A stretch of 64,000 nt of DNA from contig CAWDTA010000004.1 in NCBI GenBank assembly GCA_963805085.1, positions 352,001-416,000 on the forward strand, given 5' to 3'. Positions 4,177 through 31,391 of the stretch are shown here, piece by piece (the stretch's first letter is position 1; every line of letters starts with the position of its first letter). A program made the position numbers and the translations under genes. Source of the stretch: an uncultured Veillonellaceae bacterium. GTDB lineage: Bacteria; Bacillota; Negativicutes; JARBTT01. The notes below the pieces were generated by a model that saw only the letters and a list, made by a program, of their open reading frames with translations, did not search any database and had not been told where the DNA came from.

Positions 4177-5568
4177 TTATTTAACCACGTCATTAGAATC
4201 CTCAGTTTCTTGTTTTATACATTGTTTCTCATAAATTTTAAAGAATGGATAATATATTGCAAAATCGATTACAATTAAAAACAATATCAATACGGCTGCA
4301 CGCCAATCCATGGTAGCAAGGAAGGCACCTATAGGTGCAGGCGTTGTCCATGGCGCAGTAACAAAAGTAGCACCGACCATTCCCATCTTAGTAACAGTAT
4401 AGGCAATAACACCATTAATCCCCTGAATAAATACAAAAGGTAAACATAAGATAGGATTAAAAACCAATGGCAGACCAAAAATAATCGGTTCATTAATATT
4501 AAATAAACCAGGCAATAATCCGATACTGCCTATTCCCTTAAGTTGCTTTGATTTACTCCACAATAACATAAAGACTAATGCTAAAGTAGCACCAGAGCCA
4601 CCTAATTGCATATAGAAATCTTGAAATGGCGTAGTATAAATATGTTCTAAAGGCAATCCTGCAATTTTATCAGAAGCATTCACCAACAGATTACTATCTA
4701 AGAACGGTCTACTTACTCCACCTATAATTGCAGGCCCATGTAATCCTATAAACCACAATACATTCATCATAGTCGCTATTATAAATGTCCCCCCCGCACT
4801 ATCTACAGCCCCGACAAATGGCGCTAGAGCTTTCATAATAGCTTCTGGTACAAGCATTCCAAAACTTAATTTACATAATAAACCAATTACATGAAAACCA
4901 AATACACAAATAATTAATGGAATTAGTAATTCAAAAGAAGAAGCAACTGCTGGAGGTACACCTTTTGGCATTTTTATTACAATGTTTTTCTTTTTTAACC
5001 ACCGAGCAATCTCAACAACTAACAGTCCTACCAGAATTGCAGTAAACATCCCTTTAGCATCCATAAACTTTAAAGGTAAAGCATCTTGCCCTAATTTTGT
5101 TATTAAGGGATAGCCCATACTATCATTTATTTTAGAAAGAACTACTACAGTTTCAGAAGGTGCCGCAATCAACAAAAAAGTTGCAGCTGCAGTCATCGCA
5201 CCAGAAAGTGGATTCATCTTGTAAGAAATTGATAAATTATACCCTACTGCCATAGCAACAAATAAAGACATAATTCCCATAGTCATATTAAATGGTGCCA
5301 GAATCGCTGCCATATTAGCATTTGCCCAGCTATGCCACATTAAAAGCATTTGAATAAAAATATTCGTACTATCATTTACTCGAGCAGGATCAATTGGTGG
5401 AAAAGCCATGATCAAGCTTATCCCGCCAACAATCGTCAATGGAACAGAAGCTATAACGCCATTACGTACGGCTAAAATATGCTTTTGGTTAGCGAAAGAA
5501 GCAGCCAATGGTCCAATTTTTACTTCTAAAAATTGACTAAACTTTTCAAAAATACTCATTTGATTCAT
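4177..5568 (-). CDS. PTS cellobiose-family EIIC
   Basis: LWFIGLHG, GGSGATL, FNINEPIIFGLP, PWTTPAPIG, IYYPFFK motifs. Confidence 0.95.
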   Translation of the reverse strand: MNQMSIFEKFSQFLEVKIGPLAASFANQKHILAVRNGVIASVPLTIVGGISLIMAFPPIDPARVNDSTNIFIQMLLMWHSWANANMAAILAPFNMTMGIMSLFVAMAVGYNLSISYKMNPLSGAMTAAATFLLIAAPSETVVVLSKINDSMGYPLITKLGQDALPLKFMDAKGMFTAILVGLLVVEIARWLKKKNIVIKMPKGVPPAVASSFELLIPLIICVFGFHVIGLLCKLSFGMLVPEAIMKALAPFVGAVDSAGGTFIIATMMNVLWFIGLHGPAIIGGVSRPFLDSNLLVNASDKIAGLPLEHIYTTPFQDFYMQLGGSGATLALVFMLLWSKSKQLKGIGSIGLLPGLFNINEPIIFGLPLVFNPILCLPFVFIQGINGVIAYTVTKMGMVGATFVTAPWTTPAPIGAFLATMDWRAAVLILFLIVIDFAIYYPFFKIYEKQCIKQETEDSNDVVK

Positions 5569-6015: not shown

Positions 6016-6077
6016 CATACGCTATTAATACACTATTGTTTTTTTCACTATTAATCATACACTATCAATACACTAAG
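6016..6077. promoter_or_regulatory. Candidate upstream activating sequence (tandem repeats)
   Basis: CATACGCTATTAATACACTATT and CATACACTATCAATACACTAAG, 40 bp apart, upstream of the sigma54 promoter. Confidence 0.5.
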
Positions 6078-8829
6078 ACTGTTTTATAATTTGTAAAATA
6101 AAACAAATCTCATCAATATTAATGTCAATCGAATATATTTTTTCAATAGTAGATAGCATCTGCTTTATTTTATCAATATCTACAATATATTTTTGCAACA
6201 TATCTTTTTTATTTTTACACTCACGGGTTTTTTTACCATCCAACAAAGCATCAATCGCACAAGTTACATGAAAAATCAATCCTACCATGGTATCTTTATC
6301 TAAAAAAACATGCAAATCATCTTCCAAACTTTTCATAAATAAATCAAAATATTGTTTAAATTCATCCACATCAATGTGTCTTAATTTTTCTTTAATTGCA
6401 TCAAAGACTTGATTTTTAATTTTAATCATGTCCACTGTACTAACCTCTGTAATAACTTGTGCATTTTTCACTAAATTCCGAATTTTATCATAACGATTTA
6501 ACATAATCAAATCCGATAACGAAATAAATGGAATCCCATAAAAATGTGGGTTTATTGTGCCTACAATTGCAACAATTGTACGATCATTTGCAACTTTTTG
6601 TAATCTCTTTTCTAGCTCATGAGGATCACTAATGGACATAGGTAAAATTTCTACATGATCATCTTTAAAATCCACATTATCTTCAATTAAGTTTTTAATT
6701 TTCACAGCACTACCTTCGCCAGTCACACAAAGGGTAATAATCACAAATTCACTATTTATTTTAAAATCCTTAAATAATTCTGTACCATAACTTAATGACA
6801 TTGGAACTTTATCACGAATTGATTGACATATAATATCAATGTTATTTTCTACCTCTACTTGCCGTGCAACCTCTAATGCCATAACAGTAGTAACTAAATC
6901 AATGACTCGCAAATCAATTTTTAATTCTTCACTAATTAACTCACCAAAGGTTCCAAGAGATCCCATATCAACAAGTAAAATCACACTGCTAGGATTATTA
7001 ACTTTTATTAATTGTTTAAGTTCCTCATAACAAACTTTTGAGCTTTTATCTAGATTCATATCATAAGCTAGCACAGACTGAATTCCCAACAAGCAATTAA
7101 CCACTTCAGCCATTGAACTTGCTGTACTTCTACCATGCATAGCAATAACTAACAATGGATGATTTTTCTGGTATTCGCCCTCTATTTTATCAATACTTAA
7201 GAACATTGCAATAAAGGCAACTTCCTCGACAGGTATTTTCACATCATATTCGTGCTCTAACTTACGACAATAATCATGTACAACTTTAAATTCTTCCGGA
7301 TACTTTTCTAGAATTTCTCCAAATTTATGGTTAATGATTGGTTTTCCAATTCGCATCCTTTCTAAGCTAGCCTGCATATGTAAACACAAGCTATGGAAAA
7401 CTTTCACAGGAAAAACTTTATGCAATTCTTTTCCAGCATAACCTAACAAACCATCAACAAATTTAATCGTATTTTCATTTACAATTTTAGAAATTTCAAT
7501 TGTATAGTCTTCAAAATTTCTGATATATTTGTTAAAATAACCTTCAATTTCCGTAACCATTATAAGTCGAATATCTTCTTCACTATATTGACGTCTATGC
7601 AACTCTTCCAATTTTTTTTCAATCTGCCCATAAAAGTTATTTTTATATTTATCTATATGTTTTTCATTAAAAGATCCTAATTCTTTATCAGTAAAAGAAA
7701 ACAATTGCTTATCCTGAAGGATTTCTTCTATCTTTTCAGAATGATCTTTCAGGTACAACATTCCTTGTTTAACATAATCAGGGAGGTGATGTAATTCAAT
7801 TGTAACTTTTTTTTGCATCTCACTAATACAATCTAGAAAGGCATTTGCACAGGTTAATTTAATATCACTTTTTAATTGGCCTACATTTCCTATACACGGA
7901 TATAATAATAAGCTTTTTATCACTTCATCATTTACAATGATTCGCCTATTTACCTGTCGCGACTCTTTCTGAAAAAAATCACTTATTAACAAAAATCGTT
8001 CTTTCAAAGTCCGCTCTTTCAATGATGAAATATAAATCGTCATAGGAATTCTGCGTTTAAATGTTTGCAATAAAGACGTATCTACTTGTTCTGTAGTCGC
8101 ACACAACAACAGTACGTTGACTTTCTTTTTTACTGTATCTCCCAACGGACAAAATTCACCTTTATCTATTAAATAAAATAAAAGTTCTTGCCCCTCGGCT
8201 GGCAAACGATGAATTTCATCTAAAAATAGTACTCCTCCATCAGCTTTTTCAACTATACCGCGATGTTCTCTATCCGCACCAGTATATGCACCTTTTTTAT
8301 ATCCAAATAATTGTCCTATGAGTAATTGTGGATTATTTGAATAATCTGCACAATTAAATTCAATAAACGGAGAATTCAAAGGCATCACACCATTTTCAAT
8401 AGCAAATTTATGCATTAAGCTAGCAAACATGGTTTTTCCAACACCTGTCGGTCCTAAAATTAAAGTGTGAATTCCATTAGGGGGATAAAGCACAGCAGCC
8501 TTTGCCTGACGAATTGGCTTTTTTAAACTTTCACTACTCCCAATCAATGTAGAAAAACTAGTCTCATTACCAGTCATATATATTGTTTTTTCTACTTTCC
8601 CAGAAACACCATATTTAACTGGACGACCATCCATTTTTATAAGTCGCCCTTTTCGATAGAGCTTATTTAGTATAGCACTCACATTACTCCGAAGTACTCC
8701 TATTTGCTCAGCAATCTCCTTAGTTGTATGCCCTATTATCACTTGTTCGTTTTTATTTTTTGCACTCTCGGCCACTAGAAATCCAAATACCTTTTCTTCT
8801 AAATTTTGCTCCCCCATAAAATCCTCCAT
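6073..8829 (-). CDS. LevR/CelR-type sigma54-dependent PRD-containing transcriptional activator
   Basis: N-terminal HTH, Walker A GPTGVGKT, GAYTGA loop, FLDEIHRL, PRD domains, EIIA-Man-like AMHG, EIIB-like CVTGEGSA. Confidence 0.92.
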   Translation of the reverse strand: MEDFMGEQNLEEKVFGFLVAESAKNKNEQVIIGHTTKEIAEQIGVLRSNVSAILNKLYRKGRLIKMDGRPVKYGVSGKVEKTIYMTGNETSFSTLIGSSESLKKPIRQAKAAVLYPPNGIHTLILGPTGVGKTMFASLMHKFAIENGVMPLNSPFIEFNCADYSNNPQLLIGQLFGYKKGAYTGADREHRGIVEKADGGVLFLDEIHRLPAEGQELLFYLIDKGEFCPLGDTVKKKVNVLLLCATTEQVDTSLLQTFKRRIPMTIYISSLKERTLKERFLLISDFFQKESRQVNRRIIVNDEVIKSLLLYPCIGNVGQLKSDIKLTCANAFLDCISEMQKKVTIELHHLPDYVKQGMLYLKDHSEKIEEILQDKQLFSFTDKELGSFNEKHIDKYKNNFYGQIEKKLEELHRRQYSEEDIRLIMVTEIEGYFNKYIRNFEDYTIEISKIVNENTIKFVDGLLGYAGKELHKVFPVKVFHSLCLHMQASLERMRIGKPIINHKFGEILEKYPEEFKVVHDYCRKLEHEYDVKIPVEEVAFIAMFLSIDKIEGEYQKNHPLLVIAMHGRSTASSMAEVVNCLLGIQSVLAYDMNLDKSSKVCYEELKQLIKVNNPSSVILLVDMGSLGTFGELISEELKIDLRVIDLVTTVMALEVARQVEVENNIDIICQSIRDKVPMSLSYGTELFKDFKINSEFVIITLCVTGEGSAVKIKNLIEDNVDFKDDHVEILPMSISDPHELEKRLQKVANDRTIVAIVGTINPHFYGIPFISLSDLIMLNRYDKIRNLVKNAQVITEVSTVDMIKIKNQVFDAIKEKLRHIDVDEFKQYFDLFMKSLEDDLHVFLDKDTMVGLIFHVTCAIDALLDGKKTRECKNKKDMLQKYIVDIDKIKQMLSTIEKIYSIDINIDEICFILQIIKQS

Positions 8830-10946: not shown

Positions 10947-12020
10947 CTATTTGCACATCTGAGAAAGTACAGCAACAACCTCGTCGCCAACTTCATTTGT
11001 TTTTGCCTGTCCATCCATATCTGGTGTAAGCGCTTTCTTTTCTACCATAACTTGCTCAATCGCTTTTAAAACCTGACTGCCCCACTCTTCATGACCAAAG
11101 AAATCAAGCATCTGGCTAACGGACCAAATCGAAGCTAACGGATCGGCAATGCCCTTTCCAGCAATATCAGGTGCCGAGCCATGAATAGGTTCAAACATCG
11201 ATGGATATTTTCTTTCTGGATTTACATTTGCCCCAGCAGCAAGTCCCATACCGCCTGAGATCGCAGCGCCTAAATCCGTAAGAATATCACCAAATAAATT
11301 TGATGTTACGACAACTTGGAACCGCCCTGGATCTTTCACAAAGAACATACTAGCAGCATCAACCAAATAAGAATACGTCTTCACATCTGGGTATTCCTTG
11401 CCAACTTCAGCAAATATTTGATCCCAGAAAACCATCGAATAAATCAAAGCATTTCCTTTACTGATGCTAGTTAATGTTTTACCAGTCTTACGCGCCTCTT
11501 CATAAGCATAACGGATAATACGCTCCGTACCTTTACGAGAAAATACGCCTGTTTGCAAAACAACTTCCTCGGGTTTGCCTTTAAATAACCACTCGCCAGC
11601 CCCTGCATACTCGCCTTCGCTATTTTCTCTGATCACAAGCATATCAATCTGATCCCGCGTGATATCCTTCAAAGGACATGGCGCACCATCAAGCAATTGA
11701 ACTGGACGTATATTCACATACTGATCAAAGCCTTTTCTAATTTTAAGTAATAAATCACAAAGAGAAATGTGATCGGGAACACCAGGATACCCCACTGCGC
11801 CTAAATATATCGCATCAAAAGCTTTTAGCTTTTCTAATCCATCATCATCCATCATTTTGCCATTTTTTAAATAATACTGGCAACCCCAAGGAAAATAAGT
11901 AAAATCAAATTTAAAAGCTCCAGATAATTCAGATACTTTATTTAAAATTTTTATACCTTCAGCCAATACTTCGGGACCAATTCCATCTCCAGCAATCACT
12001 GCAACTTTATATTCTTTCAT
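10947..12020 (-). CDS. Tartrate dehydrogenase / D-malate dehydrogenase (decarboxylating)
   Basis: AGDGIGPEV, RENSEGEY, NLFGDILTDL, SMFEPIHGSAPDIAG; PDHISL and FDQYVN favour TtuC/DmlA over LeuB. Confidence 0.85.
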   Translation of the reverse strand: MKEYKVAVIAGDGIGPEVLAEGIKILNKVSELSGAFKFDFTYFPWGCQYYLKNGKMMDDDGLEKLKAFDAIYLGAVGYPGVPDHISLCDLLLKIRKGFDQYVNIRPVQLLDGAPCPLKDITRDQIDMLVIRENSEGEYAGAGEWLFKGKPEEVVLQTGVFSRKGTERIIRYAYEEARKTGKTLTSISKGNALIYSMVFWDQIFAEVGKEYPDVKTYSYLVDAASMFFVKDPGRFQVVVTSNLFGDILTDLGAAISGGMGLAAGANVNPERKYPSMFEPIHGSAPDIAGKGIADPLASIWSVSQMLDFFGHEEWGSQVLKAIEQVMVEKKALTPDMDGQAKTNEVGDEVVAVLSQMCK

Positions 12021-13691: not shown

Positions 13692-13719
13692 AAGCGTAGG
13701 CGATACAATCGCCTACGTT
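13692..13719 (-). terminator. Terminator of the uxu/uxa operon
   Basis: GCGTAGGCGAT-ACA-ATCGCCTACGT preceded by an A-run (U-run on minus). Confidence 0.75.
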
Positions 13720-13792: not shown

Positions 13793-15196
13793 TTAAAATT
13801 CAAAATATTTTTTTACATTATGATATGAAATGTTTTCTACCAAGTTTCCTAAAAATTTCATATCAGCGGGATATTCCCCTTTTTCTACCCACGTACCAAT
13901 CATATTACAAAGAATACGCCGAAAATATTCATGCCTTGTATAGGACAAAAACGATCTTGAATCTGTTAGCATGCCAATAAAATTTCCTAAAATAGATAAA
14001 CTTGCTAAACTTGTAAGCTGATCCAGCATCCCTGTTTTACTATCATTAAACCACCAAGCAGCTCCATGTTGAATTTTCCCAGCAATCTCACTTCCCTGGA
14101 AAGATCCAATTATAGAACCAATTAATTCATTATCATTTGGATTTAGTGAATAAAGTATTGTTTTTGGTAACTTATTCTTTTTATTAAGTGCATCTAATAA
14201 TTTTACAATTGCATCCCCACAATGATGAGCTGCAATGCAATCAAATCCTGTATCTGCTCCCAACATTTTTAATGCCAATGAATTTCCGTTGCGCTGTGCC
14301 GAATAATGAATCTGCATCCCCCAATTTTTTTTGCTGTATTCCTGCCCTAAAAACAGTAGAATTCCTGTTTTATAAGCTTCAATCTCCTCTGCTGTTAATT
14401 TCTCTCTGTGAAGCGCTTTCTGAAATATCTTATTAAGCTCGGTATCTTTTACTTCCCGAAAAAACACATAATCCAATCCGTGGTCTGAGGCTCTACAACC
14501 CATTTTATGAAAAAATTCTATACGATTTTCCAATGCTTGATAAACATCTTCTATAGTCTGTATTTTTATCTTAGATGCTTTATTAAGGCGTTCAATATAC
14601 GATATAAACCCTTCTTTTTCAATCGCCATTATTCCATCAGGGCGCATTGTCGGTAAGACCTCAGCCAAACATTTTCCATCTTCCTTTATCTTTTTATGCC
14701 AATGTAAATCATCTGCCGGATCATCTGTTGTACAAATCACTTTCACATTAGAAGCTTTAATAATCCCCAACACGGACATTTCTTTTTCTTGTAATTTTTT
14801 ATTGCAAAGATTCCAAATCTCTTCCGACGTCTCTCCATTCAAGGGTATTGAACAATTAAAATACCGCTGTAGTTCCATGTGTGTCCAGTGATAAAGCGGA
14901 TTTCCTATTGCTCTTGGTAACGCTTCGGCAAATTTTTGAAATTTTTCACGATCCGTCGATTCTGTACCCGTAATATATTTTTCTTCGACCCCATTAGAAC
15001 GAATCATGCGCCATTTATAATGATCCCCCCCCAACCATGCTTCCGTAATGTTTCTAAAAACATGATTTTCAGCAATTTGCTGCGGATTTATATGACAATG
15101 ATAATCAATAATCGGCATTCTAGTGGCATGCTGATGAAACAAAATCTGCGCGGTTTCATTTTCTAACAAAAAGTTTTTACCCATGAATTCTTCCAT
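13793..15196 (-). CDS. uxaC: Glucuronate isomerase
   Basis: IIDYHCH, WLGGDHYKWR, GAAWWFND, LTDSRSFLSYTRHEYFRR. Confidence 0.97.
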   Translation of the reverse strand: MEEFMGKNFLLENETAQILFHQHATRMPIIDYHCHINPQQIAENHVFRNITEAWLGGDHYKWRMIRSNGVEEKYITGTESTDREKFQKFAEALPRAIGNPLYHWTHMELQRYFNCSIPLNGETSEEIWNLCNKKLQEKEMSVLGIIKASNVKVICTTDDPADDLHWHKKIKEDGKCLAEVLPTMRPDGIMAIEKEGFISYIERLNKASKIKIQTIEDVYQALENRIEFFHKMGCRASDHGLDYVFFREVKDTELNKIFQKALHREKLTAEEIEAYKTGILLFLGQEYSKKNWGMQIHYSAQRNGNSLALKMLGADTGFDCIAAHHCGDAIVKLLDALNKKNKLPKTILYSLNPNDNELIGSIIGSFQGSEIAGKIQHGAAWWFNDSKTGMLDQLTSLASLSILGNFIGMLTDSRSFLSYTRHEYFRRILCNMIGTWVEKGEYPADMKFLGNLVENISYHNVKKYFEF

Positions 15197-15208
15197 TAAA
15201 AATCATCC

Positions 15209-17005
15209 TCATATATTATTTTCTTTTGATTTTTTTCCAATTACACTTTGTAACGCCTGATAAACATTGCTAACTTTTTGCCCCAATGCCACCTGAAGCT
15301 GTTCTCCAACTATAATAGCATCTTTGACACCATCTAAATTCTTTAAAACTTCGCAATTTGCCGCCGTATTATCTGATAATGTAATTCTAATCCGCGTAGC
15401 GCAATACGTATAATAATCAATATTATACGCTCCGCCGACATTTGCCAAAATTGCATTTGCTAAAATTAATTGATCATCTTCTGCATCTTTTAGATTGTCT
15501 ATTTTAATTGAATGACTCCAAATCTCTTGGTATTTGTATCCTGTTAGTTCTTCAACAATTGCCTTAGTTTCAGCACTAACATCATCCTTACTTCCACCAG
15601 CTTTTAAACGATCAATTTCTTGAATCAAGACAGCATGTGTCTGTTTGTTCAGCTTAAAATGCCATGCGAAATACAACGCAATTGCAATTAGGCCACCGGT
15701 GCCTATGAACAATGTATTAGCGATTGTATGAATAGCTTCTGGGGTCTGTATTAATTGTCCTTTAATAAATCCACCTTCCTGTAAGACAAAACCTACAATT
15801 ATCGTAGCAACTGCGACTGTAGTTTTCCTCGCAAAAGTCATAACTGCAGCAAACAACCCTTCTCTTCTTTTCTGCGATATAATTTCATCTACATCTGGAA
15901 TAAAAGGAAAAACATTCCATGGTGTGAATTCAAGAAGCTGACGCCCTACTTGATAAAAAAGGCCTAATGCATATAAAACAACCAATTTAGAACCAGGATC
16001 ATAAAGATATACTACAAAAAATCCTATTAAACAAACAAGCATTGTTATATAAGAAGTTTTAAACAAATTACTCGGCCCAATTTTAATCAATAAGAATCCT
16101 CCAGCAATCGTTGCTGGTATTCCAATAATACTTAACGAAAGTATATCAGCAGCATTTGACGATGGAATGTTTAAACAGAATACCGCAAAGAAAACAAATA
16201 CCGTATTAAAAACGTCTTTTCCCGTAAAAGAGCAAATATAGATCAATAAATGCTGACGAAAAGCTTTAACTTTCAAAGTAGACCAGTATTCTTTAGTGAT
16301 ATGAACAAAACTTTGGCACTTCTCAGCAAAACTTTTAGGCTGTTCGGTCTGAAGAAGTTCTTCTTTCATTTTTGCTGTAAGTTCTCTTTCCCAGGTTACT
16401 TTGTAACTAATAAAAATGCAAATAGCAAACAGTACCGCAAAAATTGTACCATTTAAGGAATATGCATACGCATTATTTTCCCCAAAGTGACGAATTAAAA
16501 TTGCTGGGACAAATGTAGCTAAAAAAGTGCCCGTAGATGATATAAACATACGGCAGGTAGAAAGTTTTGTCCTCGCATTAAAGTCCGTTGTCATTTCCGA
16601 TGGCAAAGTTTCCCAAGGAATCAATACCATTGCTGCAATAATTTCAAATGCTAGATAGCAAGTTAAGTAATACCAATAACTCATTCCTGTAAGCCAAAGC
16701 ATAGCATAAACAGCCATCAACGGTGATCCAATCAGTAAGAAAAATCGACGACGGCCAAAACGTTTTCCAAGCTTATTCTTGAAAAAATTATCTGATACGC
16801 TACCAATAGATAAACTGACGATTGCATCAACTATTCTGGCAATTCCGACAATTGAAGCTGCTTCTAGCGGTGTTAAGCCAGCATATGTTGTATAAAAGAA
16901 AAGTAGCCACGCCCCTATAATTGTAAATGCACCACCACCCATCAAGTCTGTTAAACCAAAACCTATACCAATCGGAATTGTAATTTTTCTATTTTTCTCA
17001 GCCAT
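15209..17005 (-). CDS. GPH/MFS oligo-uronide-type transporter with C-terminal PTS EIIB (Glc family) domain
   Basis: GPH motifs (FGRRRFFLL, PWETLPSEMT, FIPDVDEI..RREGLF); tail ILANVGGAYNI...CATRIRI...QLQVALG matches EIIB. Confidence 0.85.
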   Translation of the reverse strand: MAEKNRKITIPIGIGFGLTDLMGGGAFTIIGAWLLFFYTTYAGLTPLEAASIVGIARIVDAIVSLSIGSVSDNFFKNKLGKRFGRRRFFLLIGSPLMAVYAMLWLTGMSYWYYLTCYLAFEIIAAMVLIPWETLPSEMTTDFNARTKLSTCRMFISSTGTFLATFVPAILIRHFGENNAYAYSLNGTIFAVLFAICIFISYKVTWERELTAKMKEELLQTEQPKSFAEKCQSFVHITKEYWSTLKVKAFRQHLLIYICSFTGKDVFNTVFVFFAVFCLNIPSSNAADILSLSIIGIPATIAGGFLLIKIGPSNLFKTSYITMLVCLIGFFVVYLYDPGSKLVVLYALGLFYQVGRQLLEFTPWNVFPFIPDVDEIISQKRREGLFAAVMTFARKTTVAVATIIVGFVLQEGGFIKGQLIQTPEAIHTIANTLFIGTGGLIAIALYFAWHFKLNKQTHAVLIQEIDRLKAGGSKDDVSAETKAIVEELTGYKYQEIWSHSIKIDNLKDAEDDQLILANAILANVGGAYNIDYYTYCATRIRITLSDNTAANCEVLKNLDGVKDAIIVGEQLQVALGQKVSNVYQALQSVIGKKSKENNI

Positions 17006-17085: not shown

Positions 17086-18693
17086 TTATCCTACATATTT
17101 CCTTAATGTATTCTTAACAGACTCCGGTCCAACGCTCATTTCTTTAAAATAATCTTCAATCAAGACTCCTAACTCAACTTTATACAAATCTGAACCAAAA
17201 ATAGTGATATCGCTAAGAATTGGCTTTAATACAGCATGAACATCAAAGCTTTTACCTAAATGTACATCTGCCAATTTTTTCTGTAAATCTGGCAATAATG
17301 GATCAGGACTCACCGTAAATCGCTTACCAGAATCATCAACTCCTAATAAATAACGACACCAGCCAGCAATAACCAGAGGAATATACTTAAGAGTTCTCAC
17401 ATCTAATTCCGATGAGTCCTGATAAGCCTTAATCGTTTCACCGAAACGCACACCAAGTTTTTGTGACGTGTCACAAGCAATACGCTGAGGCGTATCTGGT
17501 ATTGCTGGATTAGGAAAACGCTCGGTCAAGCATTCTCGTAAAAAATCTCGTGGATTCAGTACCCCTGGATCTGCGACAACCTTCATCCCTTCTTGATAGC
17601 CGATTTTTTCAACAAATTGCTGCAGCAACGGATTTTTCATTTCATCGGCAATCAATGTATAACCTAACAAGCAACCAAAAATCGCCAATGCTGTATGCAG
17701 TGGATTCAAACAAGTGCAAACTTTCATTTTTTCCACACAATCAACCGTCTGACGGTTGGTAAAAATTACACCTGTTTTTTCTAAAGGAGGTCTGCCATTT
17801 AGAAAATTATCTTCGACTACCAAATATTCTGTCTTTTCCGCATTCACAAAGGGAGCATAACAGCCGCCACGATTACTAGAAATAAACTCCATATCCGTAA
17901 GTCCATCTTTTAGAAGCTCTTTTTGTATTTTTTCTGATGGACGCGGTGTTATTTTATCAATCATGCTGCATGGATAGGCAACTTTCTGCAGTAAATACTC
18001 TATAAAACCTTTTTCTACCAGGTCTTTTTTCTCCCAAGCATAAGCAATCTCTCTAATCGCATTTTGTAATACAATTCCATTATGTGAACAATTATCCATA
18101 CTCAAAAGAGTTAACGGAAAAGCACCTGCTAAATAACGTTCATGTAATAAAGAAACCAATCTTGCCAAAAAACTTTGCGGTGCTTTTGGTCCGTTCATCA
18201 GATCAGTAGCAATATCGGCCAAATATGCACCATCATTATCCTTGGTTTTATACCCCTTTTCTGTAATAGTAAAACTGATAATCTGCAGCGATGGGTTACG
18301 CAAAATTTCTTGTAAATGCTGCCAATCTTTCTTTTCTTCCGTATGGCAGGTTAAACTTTCAGCGATACTGCCAATTACTTTTTTACGAGTACTCTGATCT
18401 GGATACAGCGTAACCAATAAGCTTAAATTATCATGTGGCTGATAAATTTTATCAATTACTTCGCAATTATTAGTTGCTACTGCTATGATTCCCGTTTTCA
18501 CAAAACCTTGGTTCAGTAAGCTCTGCTGCAACGAAGCCACAAAAGCGCGAAATATATTTCCCGGGCCAAAATGCAACCATTCTGGACGTTTCGCTGTTTC
18601 CTGCAGCATTTTACTACGATCAAACCTTGGTAATTCTATCCCCTTACCTTGCCAAGCTAGTACATTTTGCAGGTTCTTCGCATTAAGTTTCAT
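17086..18693 (-). CDS. Mannitol dehydrogenase family oxidoreductase (probable fructuronate/D-mannonate reductase, UxuB-like)
   Basis: HFGPGNIFRA, FTITEKGY, SMDNCSHNG, MIDKITPRP, KVCTCLNPLH; between uxuA and uxaC. Confidence 0.85.
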   Translation of the reverse strand: MKLNAKNLQNVLAWQGKGIELPRFDRSKMLQETAKRPEWLHFGPGNIFRAFVASLQQSLLNQGFVKTGIIAVATNNCEVIDKIYQPHDNLSLLVTLYPDQSTRKKVIGSIAESLTCHTEEKKDWQHLQEILRNPSLQIISFTITEKGYKTKDNDGAYLADIATDLMNGPKAPQSFLARLVSLLHERYLAGAFPLTLLSMDNCSHNGIVLQNAIREIAYAWEKKDLVEKGFIEYLLQKVAYPCSMIDKITPRPSEKIQKELLKDGLTDMEFISSNRGGCYAPFVNAEKTEYLVVEDNFLNGRPPLEKTGVIFTNRQTVDCVEKMKVCTCLNPLHTALAIFGCLLGYTLIADEMKNPLLQQFVEKIGYQEGMKVVADPGVLNPRDFLRECLTERFPNPAIPDTPQRIACDTSQKLGVRFGETIKAYQDSSELDVRTLKYIPLVIAGWCRYLLGVDDSGKRFTVSPDPLLPDLQKKLADVHLGKSFDVHAVLKPILSDITIFGSDLYKVELGVLIEDYFKEMSVGPESVKNTLRKYVG

Positions 18694-18712: not shown

Positions 18713-19792
18713 TTATTTTCTGCTGTTTTCACGGCAAATTGCATCCCATAAACCGCACAAATAATTTGCCCCTAACGCTCTATCATATAATCCATATCCA
18801 GGACGTCCTTTTTCATTCCAGATCATTCTTCCATGATCTGGTCGAATTGGGCCAGTAAAACCAATATCATGTAAAGCCTTCATTATCGCATAAATATCTA
18901 AAGAACCATATTGGGATTTATGAGCAACTTCATTGAATACCCATGGTTCATGTACCTGGACGTTTCTAATATGAGCAAAAGCTACACGTCCCATTTTGCC
19001 GAAATGCCGAATAATATCGGGGATATCATTATTTAAATTGGCTCCTAATGAACCACTACAAATTGTCAAACCATTACTTGGGCTATCAACCATACCGACA
19101 ATCCGCTCCAAATTATTTTTTGAAATAACAATACGTGGTAAACCAAACACCTTGCAAGGTGGATCGTCCGGATGAATTGCCATTTTTATGCCTACTTCTT
19201 CGGCAACTGGTACAACTGCTTTCAAAAAGTATTCCAAGTTTTTAAATAATTCTTCTTCATCAATATCTTTGTATAAATCAAACAACTTCGTTAACTCTTT
19301 TAATCTCTCTGGCTCCCAGCCTGGAAGCGAAAAACCATTGGCATTCTTTTGCACTTCTTCAACCATTACTTGTGGATCTTTCCCAGCAATCAAATGATAA
19401 TCATAAGCGAGTGCTGTGGAACCATCAAATAATACTTTAGCTAAGTCCGTTCTCGTCCAATCAAATACTGGCATAAAATTATAACAAACAACATTTACAC
19501 CAACCTTACCAAGATTTCTCAAAGAAATAATATAATTTTCTATATAGCGGTCGCGACTTGGTAAACCTAGTTTAATATCCTCATGTACATTTACACTTTC
19601 TACTGTTTCAAAAGCTAAACCATAGTCTTCAATTTCATTTTTTAACTGCATAATTTTTTCCATTGGCCATGCTTCACCAACGGGCACATCAAATAAAGCG
19701 CCTACAACTCCTTGCATTCCTGGGATTTGCCGAATATTTTGAAGTGTAATTTTATCTTCATCTTTTCCATACCATCGAAATGTCATCTTCAT
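18713..19792 (-). CDS. uxuA: Mannonate dehydratase
   Basis: [45 protein letters not shown]; start set at ATG 19792. Confidence 0.97.
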
Positions 19793-19832
19793 TATCAAAT
19801 TCCCCCATATCATTTATAGTGCTCAAGTTCTT

Positions 19833-20089: not shown

Positions 20090-20776
20090 TTACTTAAAAT
20101 AACCTTTATATGTTTGTTTTAATTCCTCAATATCAGTAATTACTTTATTAATATGCAACCCAATTATTTTTTCACATAATCCTTGATCTTTCTGAATAAT
20201 CGCTTCTACAATCTGTCGATGCTGCCCAAATAATTTTGGCAGTTCATAATAGCCTTTCGTTAAAGTGAGCATTCGCACGCGATTATAATTTAAACTCATC
20301 TGTTTAATCATTTTCCAGATGCGCTCCTTATTACAAGCTTTAAATATAAGGCCATGCATGGTATCATCTAGCTCAAAAAACTTCATATAATCTTCTTTAT
20401 TTACACATAATTCTTGTAAATCTAAACAAGCTTGCACTTGTAATAATGATTCCCTAGGAAACCCATGACAAACCAGTTTGATTATAGCATTTTCCATCGT
20501 TGCCCGCAAAAATCGTGATTCGGCAACCTGCTCTAAATCTATCTTTGCCACATAGGTGCCCTTTTGCGGTAGAATATCCAATAAATTTTCTTGAGCTAAG
20601 CGAATAAAGGCTTCTCTGACTGGCGTACGACTAATTTGCAGTAATTCAGCGATGTCTTTCTCCGACAATGCAGTTCCTGGCACTAGATTCAAGCTGAGAA
20701 TATTTTTAATCAACAATCTATAGGCATACTCTCCTATTGAATCTTGTGGTAATTTATCAGAAATGTTAAAGTTCAT
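20090..20776 (-). CDS. GntR/FadR-family regulator (FCD domain)
   Basis: ISRTPVREAFIRL, PQKGTYV, FFELDDTMH, QHRQIV. Confidence 0.93.
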   Translation of the reverse strand: MNFNISDKLPQDSIGEYAYRLLIKNILSLNLVPGTALSEKDIAELLQISRTPVREAFIRLAQENLLDILPQKGTYVAKIDLEQVAESRFLRATMENAIIKLVCHGFPRESLLQVQACLDLQELCVNKEDYMKFFELDDTMHGLIFKACNKERIWKMIKQMSLNYNRVRMLTLTKGYYELPKLFGQHRQIVEAIIQKDQGLCEKIIGLHINKVITDIEELKQTYKGYFK

Positions 20777-25124: not shown

Positions 25125-26552
25125 TTAGAAGCTAACGGTTAAAGCCGCATAAGCTGTATCTTCATATTTGCTGAAACCGGATTTAGCTTCATCATATGGT
25201 TTAAGCTTATAGTAAGTAACTTCAAAATTTGTATTACTAGCTAACATATAACTTGCACCAAGCCCCCAACCTTTATCACCATCGCCATTAAATCCATTAC
25301 CACCAGCTATATTCAATCTATGTCCCCAGTACGTAGAATCTACTGCTGCGTTACCAAGGCTGAAATATTCCGCATATACCTTCCATGTATTGGCTTTATT
25401 CCATACTTGATTACCATAAGTTAACCTTGTCCAATAACCATGATCTTGATCTGCTGCATCGGCATTATTTTTTACATATTCCGCAAGCAAATTCACTTTA
25501 TCACTTATTTGCGAATTAAAACCAACTGCATATTGATCAAATGCATATGGTTGTTCATTCCAGACTGTCGTAGCTACAGGTGTTTGTATCCAACTACCAT
25601 CAGTTAATTGCACCCACTTATTTTCATATGCTGTACTAGCCGTCTTTAATTTATCATTTGTCTTTAAATGGGCAACTGTAACATGCGTAGCAGGACTCGT
25701 CGCTACATCAACATTTGCTAGGAACGCTCCCATATTCGTATTATGCCAACCTTCAGCTGCTAAATCTCCCCAACCGGCTGATACTTTTACCTTGTCACCA
25801 AATTGGTGCGTAGCATAGATACCATCAATTTGGTTTTCCCACCAAAGAAGACCTTGTCCAAGATTTAATTCCAGCCGCCCAACAGAAATGTTTGTATTTG
25901 CATGATTCCAATCAACACTAAACTTGTCAAGTCTAAAAGAGTTCTGATCTCTGGTGCTATTATCCCAAGAATTGAAATTCTGATTTTTATTACCCCAACC
26001 ATCATTTACTTTAATTTCATTTTCATATTTAATACGGCCATTTATGGATATATTCTCTGCTGGTTCGCCATAAAAGCCAAGGCGTACACGTTCTTCAAAT
26101 TGGCTGGAATTTTCTTTATGTCCATCGTTGGTATCTTTCATCTTATTTGCTTTATTTTCAAAATACCGCATACGAGCATCACCATACCATTTAAATGAAG
26201 ACATTTTATCTTCTACTTTTTTTAGACGTACACCCATATTGGCTAATTCATCAGAGTATTCTTTTGATAAACGATCTAAAGCTGCTTTATTGGCATCATC
26301 TGCTTTATCAACGTTAGACATTGCTTTGGCAACTAGCTCTGCCATTTCATAGCGGCTAATCGCTTTTTCACCGCGGAAATCTGCATCACCATAGCCATCT
26401 ACGAGACCTGCTTGTACTAGTTTTTCTACTGCACCATATGCCCAATGGTCTTTTGGTACACTCGTAAATGGATTTGCTGTTGCTGCCATAGCAACACTAG
26501 AAAAGCTAAGAGCACCTAGAGCTACTGCAGATACAAGAAACTGTTTTTTCAT
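25125..26552 (-). CDS. OmpM-like outer-membrane porin with N-terminal SLH domain
   Basis: Signal peptide, NPFTSVPKDHWAY..GLVDGY...SRYEMA SLH, coiled coil, amphipathic beta strands, terminal Phe; AGGAGG RBS before ATG 26552. Confidence 0.88.
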   Translation of the reverse strand: MKKQFLVSAVALGALSFSSVAMAATANPFTSVPKDHWAYGAVEKLVQAGLVDGYGDADFRGEKAISRYEMAELVAKAMSNVDKADDANKAALDRLSKEYSDELANMGVRLKKVEDKMSSFKWYGDARMRYFENKANKMKDTNDGHKENSSQFEERVRLGFYGEPAENISINGRIKYENEIKVNDGWGNKNQNFNSWDNSTRDQNSFRLDKFSVDWNHANTNISVGRLELNLGQGLLWWENQIDGIYATHQFGDKVKVSAGWGDLAAEGWHNTNMGAFLANVDVATSPATHVTVAHLKTNDKLKTASTAYENKWVQLTDGSWIQTPVATTVWNEQPYAFDQYAVGFNSQISDKVNLLAEYVKNNADAADQDHGYWTRLTYGNQVWNKANTWKVYAEYFSLGNAAVDSTYWGHRLNIAGGNGFNGDGDKGWGLGASYMLASNTNFEVTYYKLKPYDEAKSGFSKYEDTAYAALTVSF

Positions 26553-26666
26553 TTGAATTCCTCCTAAAATAATAAATAAATTCTTTTTGAGCCAACTATT
26601 AGGAGCACGAACATTGTTGTCCATGTTGCCAATATTCTGACTTCTTCTAGTCACCTCTTATTTAGA

Positions 26667-28198: not shown

Positions 28199-29884
28199 TT
28201 AATTTTGATGAATTAAATCTAATGCAAAGTTGAATGCAGCTTCAGATTCTCTAGTTAATTTAACGTATTCTTTACCAGAAGTTGTCGCTGATTTTACACC
28301 TTTTGCATCACAATCACGTTTCAATTCATCGTACATAGATGCCATTTGTGGTGCTAATACAATCAAATCAAAATCAGTAATTTTTTCTTTATGCTGACCA
28401 TATGCCATAGCAATAGAATCCATGTTAAATTTCTTTTCCTTTGCCCCTTTAGCGATTGATTTTGCAAGCATACTACTCGTTGCACCACTTGCACAAAGTA
28501 CCAATACTGCTAATTGTTCTTCAGGGCTTTGACTAGCTACTGTCTGCTGAGCAGATTCCTTTATTGAAGTAGTTGGGACTTGCACTATTTTACGGTCTTC
28601 TTCGACTTCACCATTATTTTCAGATTCTCTAATTACCAATTGTTTGTCATAGACTTTAAAGAATGGATAATACATTACAAAATCAATAATCAATAATAGT
28701 GGAGCTAAGATAAACGACAATTTCGCAAAGCCAGTACCTAAAATCAAACCGATTGTCCCTGGAGTTGTCCATGGTAAAATATAGACAAAACCATTCATGC
28801 CCAAATTATCAATGAAGAATTTAAACAACCAAACATTTAGAATTGGTGTCAAAATAAATGGTACAAAGAACACTGGATTTAATACGATTGGAGCACCGAA
28901 TAAAATTGGTTCATTAACAGCAAATAATACTGGAACAATCGAAGTTTTTCCGACTGCCTTTAGCTGTTTTGATTTTGCAATAAATGCACACATTGCAGCA
29001 AACATTAGAGTTGCACCTGTACCACCTAATGTCGCGACGAAATAAGAAGTACCATGTGTCAATACATTCGTCGCATGCTCGCCCGCTTGAAATAAATTTA
29101 AGTTTGCTTCAATATTTGCAATATAGATTGCTGTTACTGCTGGTTCGACAATGGAAGGGCCATGAATCCCGATAAACCAGAACATTGCCATTGCTCCATA
29201 AATGATCGCAACACCGATGTATCCATCTGCCGCCGAAAACAACGGTTTGAATACTTCCAAAATCCATGCACTAAATCCCATGCCAACAAGATATTTAAAA
29301 AATATACTAAATATCCAAAAGATTAAAACCGATACTGCTAACGGAATTAAATCTGCAAAAGTTTGTGAAATATTATGCGGTACTTCATCCGGCATTTTGA
29401 TGGTAATATTGTTTTTCACGCAAAATTTATAAATATTAGGTATGATAAATGCTACAACAAATGCGGATAACAAGCCTTTTGTTCCCATGTATTCACTAGA
29501 AAATCCACCTTTAACAGACTCAACACTTAATAAAAGGAAACAAATAATAGCTACAATCATGACAGATACCGGATTGATTTGTCTCAATTTCGGTAGTAAA
29601 TTATTAAAATTATCAGTTAAACTTTTTGAAATGGTTGCTACCATGAGCACTGCCAAAATCCCCATGGAATAGTTATAAGCTTTCCATAGTACCGCACTGA
29701 TACTATCTGGCCAAATATAACCGAAAATATTCGGAACACAGGCAACCAAAATAAACATACTAGAAAATAGAACTACTGGAATACAACTGATAAAGCCATC
29801 TCTGATTGCTCTAAGATACGGATTATTTGAAACTTTTTCAAACGTCGGTTTCATCGTTTCAATCAAACTTATTAATTTTTCCAT
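28199..29884 (-). CDS. lacE: PTS lactose-specific EIICB
   Basis: YLRAIRDGF, FWFIGIHGPSIVEP, C-terminal VLVLCASGATS EIIB. Confidence 0.93.
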   Translation of the reverse strand: MEKLISLIETMKPTFEKVSNNPYLRAIRDGFISCIPVVLFSSMFILVACVPNIFGYIWPDSISAVLWKAYNYSMGILAVLMVATISKSLTDNFNNLLPKLRQINPVSVMIVAIICFLLLSVESVKGGFSSEYMGTKGLLSAFVVAFIIPNIYKFCVKNNITIKMPDEVPHNISQTFADLIPLAVSVLIFWIFSIFFKYLVGMGFSAWILEVFKPLFSAADGYIGVAIIYGAMAMFWFIGIHGPSIVEPAVTAIYIANIEANLNLFQAGEHATNVLTHGTSYFVATLGGTGATLMFAAMCAFIAKSKQLKAVGKTSIVPVLFAVNEPILFGAPIVLNPVFFVPFILTPILNVWLFKFFIDNLGMNGFVYILPWTTPGTIGLILGTGFAKLSFILAPLLLIIDFVMYYPFFKVYDKQLVIRESENNGEVEEDRKIVQVPTTSIKESAQQTVASQSPEEQLAVLVLCASGATSSMLAKSIAKGAKEKKFNMDSIAMAYGQHKEKITDFDLIVLAPQMASMYDELKRDCDAKGVKSATTSGKEYVKLTRESEAAFNFALDLIHQN

Positions 29885-30494: not shown

Positions 30495-31391
30495 ACTTGC
30501 TTTGAAAACTCATCTATCTGCTAGGATCAATCTGTCCTATACCTTCCATTGGAACTTCCGCAACCATTTGCAAATTTCAACATATCAAGGATGTTGTAAT
30601 CTTCGTGTAATGCGTACGCTAAACCAGCAACTAGAGAATCTCCACAACCAACTGTATTTACTGCTTCCACTGTTGGAATGTTGATGATAAATCTTCCCAA
30701 ACTTCCATTTAACATCATGCCCCGCTTACCTAACGATACGCGAACATTCTCAGCGCCCATTTCCAGCACCTTTTATGAAGCTAAAAATACATCTATCCGT
30801 TTTAACTGAAACACCAGCAAGATATTCGAGCTCTTCCTCATTTGGTTTGATCAAATATGGTCTGTCTTTGATAGCTAAACGTAAGCTTTCACCAGAAGAA
30901 TCCAAGATAAATTTTATATTATTTTTCATGCAAATTTTTGCAATTTTCCCATAATAGCCTTCGGGAAGACCTTGCGCCAAACTACCAGAAGCAACTAAAA
31001 TTTTTGTATCTTTTATCACTCTCTGCAATTCTTGCTCAAATTGTTCTATTTCCTGAGGCATAATTTCTGGCCCGCCTTCAAGGACTTCAGTAGATATACC
31101 ACTTTTATCTCTAAAATTCATACAAATTTAGGCTGTTCCTTGAATCGAGGTAAAGCGATTGATTTAACCTTCTACCTCAATTTCTCTCTTGATAAAGCCG
31201 CCGGTAAAATCACCGAGAAAACCTAGACAGCAAATTTTTCCACCGATATAATGAGCAACTCTAGAGACATTAAGACCTTTGCCTCCTGCTGTGGCGATGA
31301 CACTTTTGGCTCGTTGAACTTTTCCAGTTATAAAATCATTAAGCACATAGGAACGGTCGATAGATGGATTCATTGTAAGTACCGTAATCAT
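30495..31391 (-). pseudogene. lacC: Tagatose-6-phosphate kinase (PfkB/LacC) pseudogene
   Basis: TMNPSID, GGKGLNV, SGSL, IKPNEEEL, NTVGCGDS motifs interrupted by TAA at 31164, 31128, 30773 and frameshifts near 30795 and 30548. Confidence 0.9.

Follow-up and report, generated by a model that had tools for sequence, protein, structure and literature searches.

Results

A carrier gene in a uronate operon continues in frame into a PTS domain

We analysed a 64,000-nucleotide stretch of DNA (the window) from an uncultured Veillonellaceae bacterium (GenBank assembly GCA_963805085.1, contig CAWDTA010000004.1, positions 352,001 to 416,000). On its minus strand, in an apparent uronate operon, lies a gene that encodes a GPH/MFS_2 carrier from the major facilitator superfamily (MFS) with an EIIB domain of the phosphotransferase system (PTS) on its C-terminus. 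The gene and its parts are laid out as follows, with residues numbered along the 598-amino-acid (aa) protein and the basis of each assignment in brackets.

15209..17005, minus strand: whole gene, GPH/MFS_2 carrier plus PTS EIIB, 598 aa (open reading frame, Pfam, NCBIfam)
15647..16960, minus strand: MFS_2 carrier body, residues 16-453, with a 12-transmembrane-helix (TM) MFS fold (Pfam, AlphaFold2 (AF2)/Foldseek)
15515..15646, minus strand: conserved cytoplasmic helical tail, residues 454-497, NKQTH...LTGYKYxxxW (alignment, model)
15464..15514, minus strand: variable linker, residues 498-514 (pLDDT, dN/dS, length variation in the alignment)
15236..15463, minus strand: Glc-family PTS EIIB, residues 515-590 (profile, sequence, structure, column comparison)
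15401..15403, minus strand: TGC, coding for the loop residue C535 (C-x-T-R-x-R), which is the predicted phospho-acceptor (sequence)

A preliminary description of the locus had proposed that a uronide transporter and an EIIB share this frame, and this was confirmed. The open reading frame (ORF) is uninterrupted over 598 codons plus the stop and contains the peptides that had been quoted. A Pfam scan of the protein matched MFS_2 on residues 16-453 (E 2e-40, 139 bits against a cut-off of 27) and PTS_EIIB (PF00367) on residues 518-550 (E 7.7e-9), the latter at 35.3 bits and so above its cut-off of 27 bits. In NCBIfam, residues 515-595 align with the N-terminal EIIB of beta-glucoside, sucrose, trehalose and cellobiose PTS permeases, and the best match of the tail is TIGR01995 (E 1.4e-18 over an 81-residue alignment). 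Pfam found no EIIC domain (PF02378) in the fused protein or its operon. It found no EIIA-Glc domain (PF00358) in the fused protein either, so the domain that defines LacS-type carriers is missing from it.

Foldseek with the full-length AF2 model returned MFSD2A and MelB as top matches (TMt 0.83-0.85, E 1e-15 to 1e-9). The carrier scored below the curated cut-off of the gph model TIGR00792 (132.3 bits against 231.35), which marks a divergent GPH subfamily, and it also missed the equivalog cut-off of the glucuronide transporter model NF007353 (UidB/GusB; 102 bits against 528). The charged residues D20, D60, D72, E121, R145 and R152 are kept and are invariant across fused and unfused carriers in the alignment. 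The full-length model (pLDDT 80.5) is made up of the MFS body, two cytoplasmic helices (residues 454-468 and 478-488), a weakly modelled linker and the EIIB, and linker residues 500-507 have a pLDDT below 50, which predicts flexibility. The two helices belong to a cytoplasmic tail of about 45 residues after TM12 with the motif NKQTH...RLK...LTGYKYExLW, common to fused and unfused members of the subfamily. This tail (residues 454-497) is conserved from Bacillota to Enterobacteriaceae and is the point at which the EIIB is attached.

The C-terminal domain is a complete Glc-family EIIB

As had been claimed, the Cys codon and the TRxR motif are retained. TGC lies at 15403-15401, inside the peptide ...YYTYCATRIRIT..., and the active-site loop reads C535-A-T537-R538-I-R540 with C-x-T-R-x-R intact. 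Compared with solved chains by sequence, the tail matched eight distinct EIIB at E<=0.01, namely 3ipj (1.4e-6), 1o2f, 1iba, 3bp3 and 3bp8 (about 1e-4) and three full-length PtsG entries. Structure prediction, which the preliminary description had named as a check, agreed at the level of a model: the AF2 model of the tail (pLDDT 88.1) superposes on 3bp3, 3ipj, 3bp8 and 1o2f with a root-mean-square deviation of 1.1-1.2 A over 74-81 columns (TMt 0.79-0.90), and its only six structural matches in the PDB at E<=0.001 are every one an EIIB.

The tail was then compared, column by column, with 45 PTS or free-standing EIIB relatives from a tail-only search, counting the columns that are at least 85% conserved. 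It is identical in 16 of these 18 columns, including G524, G525, N528, C535, T537, R538, R540, D545, Q569 and Q571. The two deviating columns are a conservative L to I change at 539 and a His to Tyr change at 534, directly before the Cys. The Tyr is common to all five fused tails in the comparison; the homologue P0020 has Phe. The C, T, R and R of the loop are retained in all 16 full-length fused homologues aligned. By sequence, motif and fold the tail is a complete Glc-family EIIB. A recent duplication of a resident EIIB was considered as its origin and rejected because the EIIBs of the same genome are at most 39.5% identical to it, the closest paralogue included.

The fusion recurs in independent assemblies of a few Negativicutes lineages

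A first homologue search returned 1030 proteins at E<=0.001, and 26 of the best 120 carry the EIIB, 24 with a precomputed PF00367 match and two (P0023 and P0024) added through the C-x-T-R-x-R motif. The fused homologues come from NCBI, JGI, ENA and Logan assemblies and include Propionispira arboris, P. raffinosivorans, Pelosinus fermentans (on a 5.38 Mb contig) and metagenome-assembled genomes (MAGs) of Selenomonadaceae, at 68-97% identity. Conservation across independent assemblies led us to reject an assembly or frameshift artefact as the source of the fusion, which is therefore real and in no sense peculiar to this assembly. The domain has been caught by automated annotation: a UniRef name given to the protein from Pelosinus reads 'Phosphotransferase system EIIB/cysteine, phosphorylation site'.

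Unfused relatives, found in Paenibacillus, Clostridium, Kluyvera, Citrobacter and Megamonas, are 496-514 aa long and 63-80% identical. They stop a few residues past the conserved cytoplasmic tail ...LTGYKYExLW, so the EIIB must have been added to a carrier that was already complete. A tblastn match in Kluyvera (L067) that spanned query residues 1-595 was discarded as over-extension, because the EIIB tail searched alone matched nothing there at 1e-5.

Of 251 genomes sampled across the Propionispira family (Selenomonadaceae), five had an orthologue at E<=1e-150; four of these orthologues are full-length fused and one, from Megamonas, is unfused. Up to 8 kb from the Megamonas gene, nothing at E<=1e-5 pointed to an EIIB-coding remnant. 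At E<=1e-150, a further 400 genomes drawn from the class of the window genome gave no orthologue; the samples for its family and its order comprised just two genomes each.

The tail was also searched alone. With phmmer against 1.84 billion representatives it gave 2218 hits, and among the best 150 just one, a 138-aa piece of a fused protein, was a near relative. A Pfam scan of twenty tail hits showed 12 PTS EIIB(C)(A) proteins, seven proteins with EIIB alone (four with at least two repeats) and one without an EIIB match. An MFS domain was found in none of these 20, a sample that is not a census by domain architecture. The same holds for a word-indexed search with the tail, which returned only 11 fused orthologues, and for the ESM Atlas, where no cluster of at least 50 members combined MFS_2 with EIIB. 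Among the best tail matches were four metagenomic proteins made of tandem EIIB repeats only, in which Pfam marked three (P0123), four (P0125), two (P0127) and two (P0186) PF00367 stretches and no EIIC, EIIA or other domain; in the sequence of P0123 five repeats can be read, their loops being WC[ST][ST]R or WCFTK.

The EIIB was probably gained once, was lost more than once and is under purifying selection

A maximum-likelihood tree of the carrier body was built from 31 rows (14 fused, 17 unfused) drawn from 121 proteins, with fragments and near-duplicates excluded. One 17-row clade (support 97/91) holds all of the fused proteins in the tree, and three unfused proteins are nested inside it, giving a minimum of three state changes. 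This topology fits a history of one gain followed by at least two losses. As unfused members are nested inside the fused clade, the carrier works without the EIIB, which is dispensable to it, as expected of an accessory regulator.

Selection was estimated from ratios of non-synonymous to synonymous substitution (dN/dS) by the pairwise Nei-Gojobori method for the window gene and four orthologous loci, giving 10 pairs. dS was near saturation in the most distant pairs and 0.64-1.1 for the window against the Propionispira loci. The carrier body had dN/dS of 0.004-0.08 and the EIIB 0.06-0.20 in nine of 10 pairs, the tenth (L001 with L004) having no non-synonymous change. The linker, which also varies in length in the alignment, had values of 0.17-0.97 in the nine of 10 pairs that could be computed. 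The EIIB is under purifying selection and the linker is nearly free to vary.

The operon points to uronate uptake, with free glucuronate a likely substrate

The carrier is the third gene of the apparent operon uxuA, uxuB-like, carrier, uxaC, with gaps of 19, 80 and 12 nt. The uronate context given in the preliminary description stood up to profile searches, which identified the flanking genes as follows.

20090..20776, minus strand: GntR/FCD regulator, upstream, conserved beside fused and unfused orthologues (profiles, neighbourhoods)
18713..19813, minus strand: uxuA, mannonate dehydratase, first gene of the operon (profiles)
17086..18693, minus strand: uxuB-like reductase of the mannitol-dehydrogenase family, fructuronate reductase-like, below the equivalog cut-off (profiles)
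13793..15196, minus strand: uxaC for glucuronate isomerase, the operon's last gene, 12 nt past the carrier (PF02614, E 3.5e-203; NF002794, 611 bits, cut-off 387)
13695..13717, minus strand: terminator-like hairpin with a 10-bp stem (6 GC) and a T-run, just past uxaC (consensus scan only)

The order GntR-uxuA-uxuB-carrier is conserved in both Propionispira species, and one MAG has GntR-carrier-uxaC-uxuA-uxuB. Unfused orthologues lie in an equivalent cluster in Clostridium magnum and beside uxaC in Dickeya and Kluyvera. A scan of the window for CcpA cre-like operators (consensus with at most one mismatch) gave five matches against 6.8 expected, none of them in the promoter regions of uxuA or the GntR gene, and so offers no sign of cre control. 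Downstream of the operon, at 10947-12020 on the minus strand, an Iso_dh-family protein that scores above the tartrate dehydrogenase cut-off (TIGR02089, 486 bits against 470) adjoins an Fe-alcohol dehydrogenase.

The same genome (G000) holds two further uronate modules. One (C5:364142-374700; L080:6143-16691) encodes a GntR/FCD regulator, uxuA, a uxuB-like gene, an MFS_2 carrier that is unfused and shares 46% identity with the fused one, a GH67 alpha-glucuronidase, a 452-aa protein without a Pfam hit and a GDSL esterase, and looks like an aldouronate (glucuronoxylan-oligomer) unit. The other (C3:123300-133780; L082:2303-12781) encodes a LacI regulator, a uxaB-like gene, uxaA, a second uxaC (66% identical), GH28, a LUD-domain protein, GH88 and an unfused MFS_2 carrier 32% identical to the fused one, and looks like a pectin-oligomer unit. 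There is no glycosidase in the operon of the fused carrier, so that, of the three modules, only that of the window lacks one, while the other two use unfused carriers. From this context, a uronide would be no more likely a substrate than free glucuronate. The link of the 'uronide' transporter to uronates held, and the uronide itself is uncertain as its substrate. The name 'oligogalacturonide transporter', which the source databases give to homologues, is, from the same context, doubtful for the carrier of the window.

Candidate EIIA donors are encoded elsewhere in the genome

Profile searches of the genome found one EI, HPr, eight PF00367 matches and seven PF00358 (EIIA_1) matches. The earlier observation that no Glc-family EIIA lies nearby was borne out, all seven PF00358 matches being on contigs C2 or C5 and none on the window's contig, C4. 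They include a free-standing 156-aa EIIA-Glc (PF00358, E 1.1e-50) at C2:661653-662123 (L081:6653-7123), which adjoins nagA-like, nagB-like and RpiR-like genes and has two IS200-type transposase ORFs directly downstream. One EIIB of the genome occupies a 453-aa frame that has no neighbouring EIIA match, so this organism already employs EIIA in trans. EIIA_1 is present in all five related genomes tested (four fused, one unfused), and its presence therefore does not discriminate fused from unfused. On C2, an EIIB match with an internal TAA (C2:1637707-1637802) and an EIIA_1 match with an internal TAG (C2:1632021-1632218) stand in short frames and are possibly decayed Glc-family PTS genes.

The EIIC genes nearest to the fused gene (4177-5568 and 28199-29884) belong to Lac-family units with their own IIB. 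Genes of the Lac-family and Gat-family PTS abound in the window, as do genes of the tagatose-6-phosphate pathway. The minus-strand segment 2301-8829 carries a DagR-like sigma-54 activator (PRD and EIIA-Man domains; 538 bits, below cut-off) and, downstream of it, Lac-family PTS IIB, IIC and IIA and a GH4 glycosidase; it is a PTS regulon of its own, a few kb away from the uronate genes. A 123-aa ORF at 30750-31121 (minus strand) covers only positions 94-203 of 305 in the 1-phosphofructokinase / tagatose-6-phosphate kinase models and is probably a broken pfkB/lacC gene within a lactose-PTS / tagatose-6-phosphate cluster. In a 509-aa protein at 25125-26654 (minus strand), an SLH domain at the N-terminus is followed by a long C-terminal stretch without a Pfam hit; a diderm Negativicutes host would be a fitting setting for an SLH-anchored outer-membrane porin.

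Discussion

Proposed role of the fused EIIB

We put at about one half the probability that the EIIB, phosphorylated in trans, couples uronate uptake to the availability of PTS sugars. The protein would be a GPH-type symporter of a hexuronate (probably glucuronate) or a small uronide with a cation, carrying an acquired EIIB on a flexible cytoplasmic tether. Because there is no EIIC and no sugar acceptor, we propose that C535 swaps phosphate reversibly with donors of the P~EIIA-Glc type encoded elsewhere, for example the free 156-aa EIIA. In equilibrium with the P~EIIA pool, C535 would report flux through the Glc-family PTS sugars. The phosphorylation state of the EIIB may in turn alter the carrier, for instance with the phosphorylated form active and transport throttled once preferred PTS sugars drain the relay. 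The outcome would be a built-in, in-cis inducer exclusion for the glucuronate operon. Phosphorylation itself, its donor's identity, which way the effect runs and what is transported are inferred. The preliminary description had argued for a switch and against a sugar kinase, and that part fits the missing EIIC, enzymes that use unphosphorylated acids, at least two losses, purifying selection and PTS donors available in trans. A complex prediction of the body (residues 1-499) with the EIIB (residues 508-598) scored 0.00; it was run without controls and says nothing either way on docking.

Several observations weigh against this proposal. Inducer exclusion in Bacillota is usually ascribed to HPr(Ser-P), which would make a route through EIIA and EIIB unusual there. 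Directly ahead of the Cys the fused clade has Tyr or Phe, where 41 of the 45 canonical relatives have His. The fusion is limited to a few Negativicutes lineages (four fused among 251 sampled Selenomonadaceae genomes, no orthologue in the 400 others sampled from the class). The EIIB has been lost at least twice, and the one genome examined that has an unfused orthologue still has EIIA-Glc domains, so any advantage of the EIIB is not universal.

Relation to known systems

The fusion is real and conserved, and is best classed as a variant of the known GPH carriers regulated by PTS domains. LacS is a GPH carrier in which a fused EIIA-Glc-like domain, phosphorylated by HPr, modulates transport (PMC10710835). 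Like LacS and RafP, the window protein has a GPH/MFS_2 carrier with a PTS phosphocarrier domain joined to its cytoplasmic C-terminus by a linker and no role in phosphorylating the substrate. It differs from them in having an EIIB (Cys, about 80 aa) in place of an EIIA (His, about 160 aa) and in belonging to a uronate-linked subfamily. As the fused domain is an EIIB, the expected donor would be P~EIIA and not P~HPr as for LacS, one relay step lower. Inducer exclusion of LacY, an MFS carrier inhibited by dephospho-EIIA-Glc (PMC10710835), would be comparable as post-translational control of an MFS sugar carrier that depends on the state of the PTS. There, soluble EIIA acts in trans on the cytoplasmic loops of LacY, whereas here another PTS domain is covalently built in.

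With the EIIB of PtsG, BglF, ScrA and TreB the window domain shares the fold, the C-x-T-R-x-R loop and the conserved Gly, Asn, Asp and Gln positions. Unlike them it has no attached or adjacent EIIC, stands at the C-terminus of an MFS protein and carries Tyr/Phe instead of His before the Cys. A Glc/Scr-type EIIB on the C-terminus of a non-PTS protein is also seen in NF011497 (triosephosphate isomerase / PTS EIIB), to which the tail aligns at positions 279-353 of 357 (E 6.2e-7); the partner there is a soluble glycolytic enzyme and here a transporter.

Paenibacillus, Clostridium, Kluyvera, Citrobacter and Dickeya oryzae have unfused carriers of 496-514 aa, which JGI and NCBI name TogT-like; the carrier body is 63-68% identical to these and shares with them the conserved cytoplasmic tail and linkage to uxaC, uxuAB or uxaB genes. 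The D. oryzae protein (L026), a candidate equivalent of the characterised TogT, is 64% identical. The window protein differs in its extra EIIB and in an operon without pectin or oligogalacturonide enzymes, and the GH28/GH88-uxaABC module of this genome uses another MFS_2 carrier, only 32% identical.

We found no description of an MFS/GPH carrier fused to an EIIB in the literature searched; older PTS reviews or a survey of MFS fusions may list the architecture. Willson et al. 2019 are said to have surveyed C-terminal fusions to MFS transporters. A 2026 review of glycoside transporters mentions both TogT and the PTS, and the word 'fused' is absent from its accessible part (PMC13543919).

Alternative explanations

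The EIIB might act mainly as a membrane-anchored dock that recruits a partner, its phosphorylation state controlling binding and not the carrier directly. The partner could be dephospho-EIIA-Glc, which would block the carrier as it does LacY, or a transcription factor sequestered as Mlc is by the EIIB of PtsG. EIIB-Glc is a known docking surface, and the closest structural matches include the Mlc/EIIB complex 3bp8 and the IIA-Glc/IIB-Glc complex 1o2f. Membrane sequestration of Mlc and MtlR has been described (PMC13482132 and PMC13421365). A GntR/FCD regulator is conserved beside the gene, but unfused carriers too have a regulator of the same family and length next to them, both in Clostridium magnum (L011) and at this genome's own unfused paralogue, which leaves nothing to tie it specifically to the EIIB. 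The adjacent regulator is neither ROK nor PRD, and no search aimed at Mlc homologues was made. The Mlc-PtsG-like docking put forward in the preliminary description thus gained no specific support, and docking as a whole is a tentative alternative that we doubt.

The EIIB~P of the carrier might instead hand phosphate or information on, for example to a PRD-type regulator, so that the occupancy of the carrier would feed PTS-dependent gene control. EIIBs of Glc-family permeases phosphorylate PRD regulators, and the window holds a candidate in the PRD-containing sigma-54 activator, whose gene occupies 6073-8829. That activator is, however, grouped with its own Lac-family PTS and GH4 genes, and when used as a query it was unmatched in the 8-kb flanks of the fused orthologues L001-L004; the operon's own regulator has no PRD. 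A signal output of this kind is unlikely.

If the EIIB were a remnant, it would be out of phosphotransfer and would only aid folding, stability or oligomerisation, or be neutral. The repeated loss of the domain with the carrier kept (at least two times) and the His to Tyr change beside the Cys are what such a domain might show. The low dN/dS of the EIIB (0.06-0.20 at dS of at least 0.6) argues against it, as do the loop residues C, T, R and R, unchanged in each of the 16 fused proteins aligned, and the 16 of 18 family-conserved columns that are kept. The retention of the active-site loop in particular disfavours a neutral remnant, and we consider this explanation quite unlikely.

It is very unlikely that the protein is a fully PTS-dependent machine, with transport obligatorily gated by C535~P or with the EIIB phosphorylating substrate as it leaves the MFS cavity. 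The latter would be the first case of group translocation by a major facilitator, with an EIIB working without an EIIC. A hybrid group translocator, in which the MFS part acts as the EIIC and C535~P phosphorylates the incoming substrate, would give the EIIB its canonical job with the Cys loop intact, but is highly improbable. UxaC, UxuB and UxuA act on unphosphorylated acids, and the operon encodes no phospho-sugar enzyme. Close relatives, like the nested descendants, function with no EIIB. Hexuronates have no 6-OH, and the EIIB is held by a long tether that is flexible by prediction.

Significance

The narrow taxonomic range of the fusion limits its significance. If coupling of uronate uptake to PTS sugars through a trans-phosphorylated EIIB is correct, it would be a second and mechanistically different form of PTS-domain control of a GPH carrier, taking its input from the EIIA/EIIB level, and the response would be specific to flux of Glc-family PTS sugars. 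It would also mean that the EIIB, usually tied to an EIIC, is reusable as a portable regulatory module. The system is tractable, as there are isolate genomes of Propionispira and Pelosinus, natural tail-less relatives and two unfused paralogous uronate modules for comparison. Its practical interest lies in the carbon-source hierarchy of anaerobic Negativicutes, in which PTS sugars are set against plant- or host-derived uronic acids.

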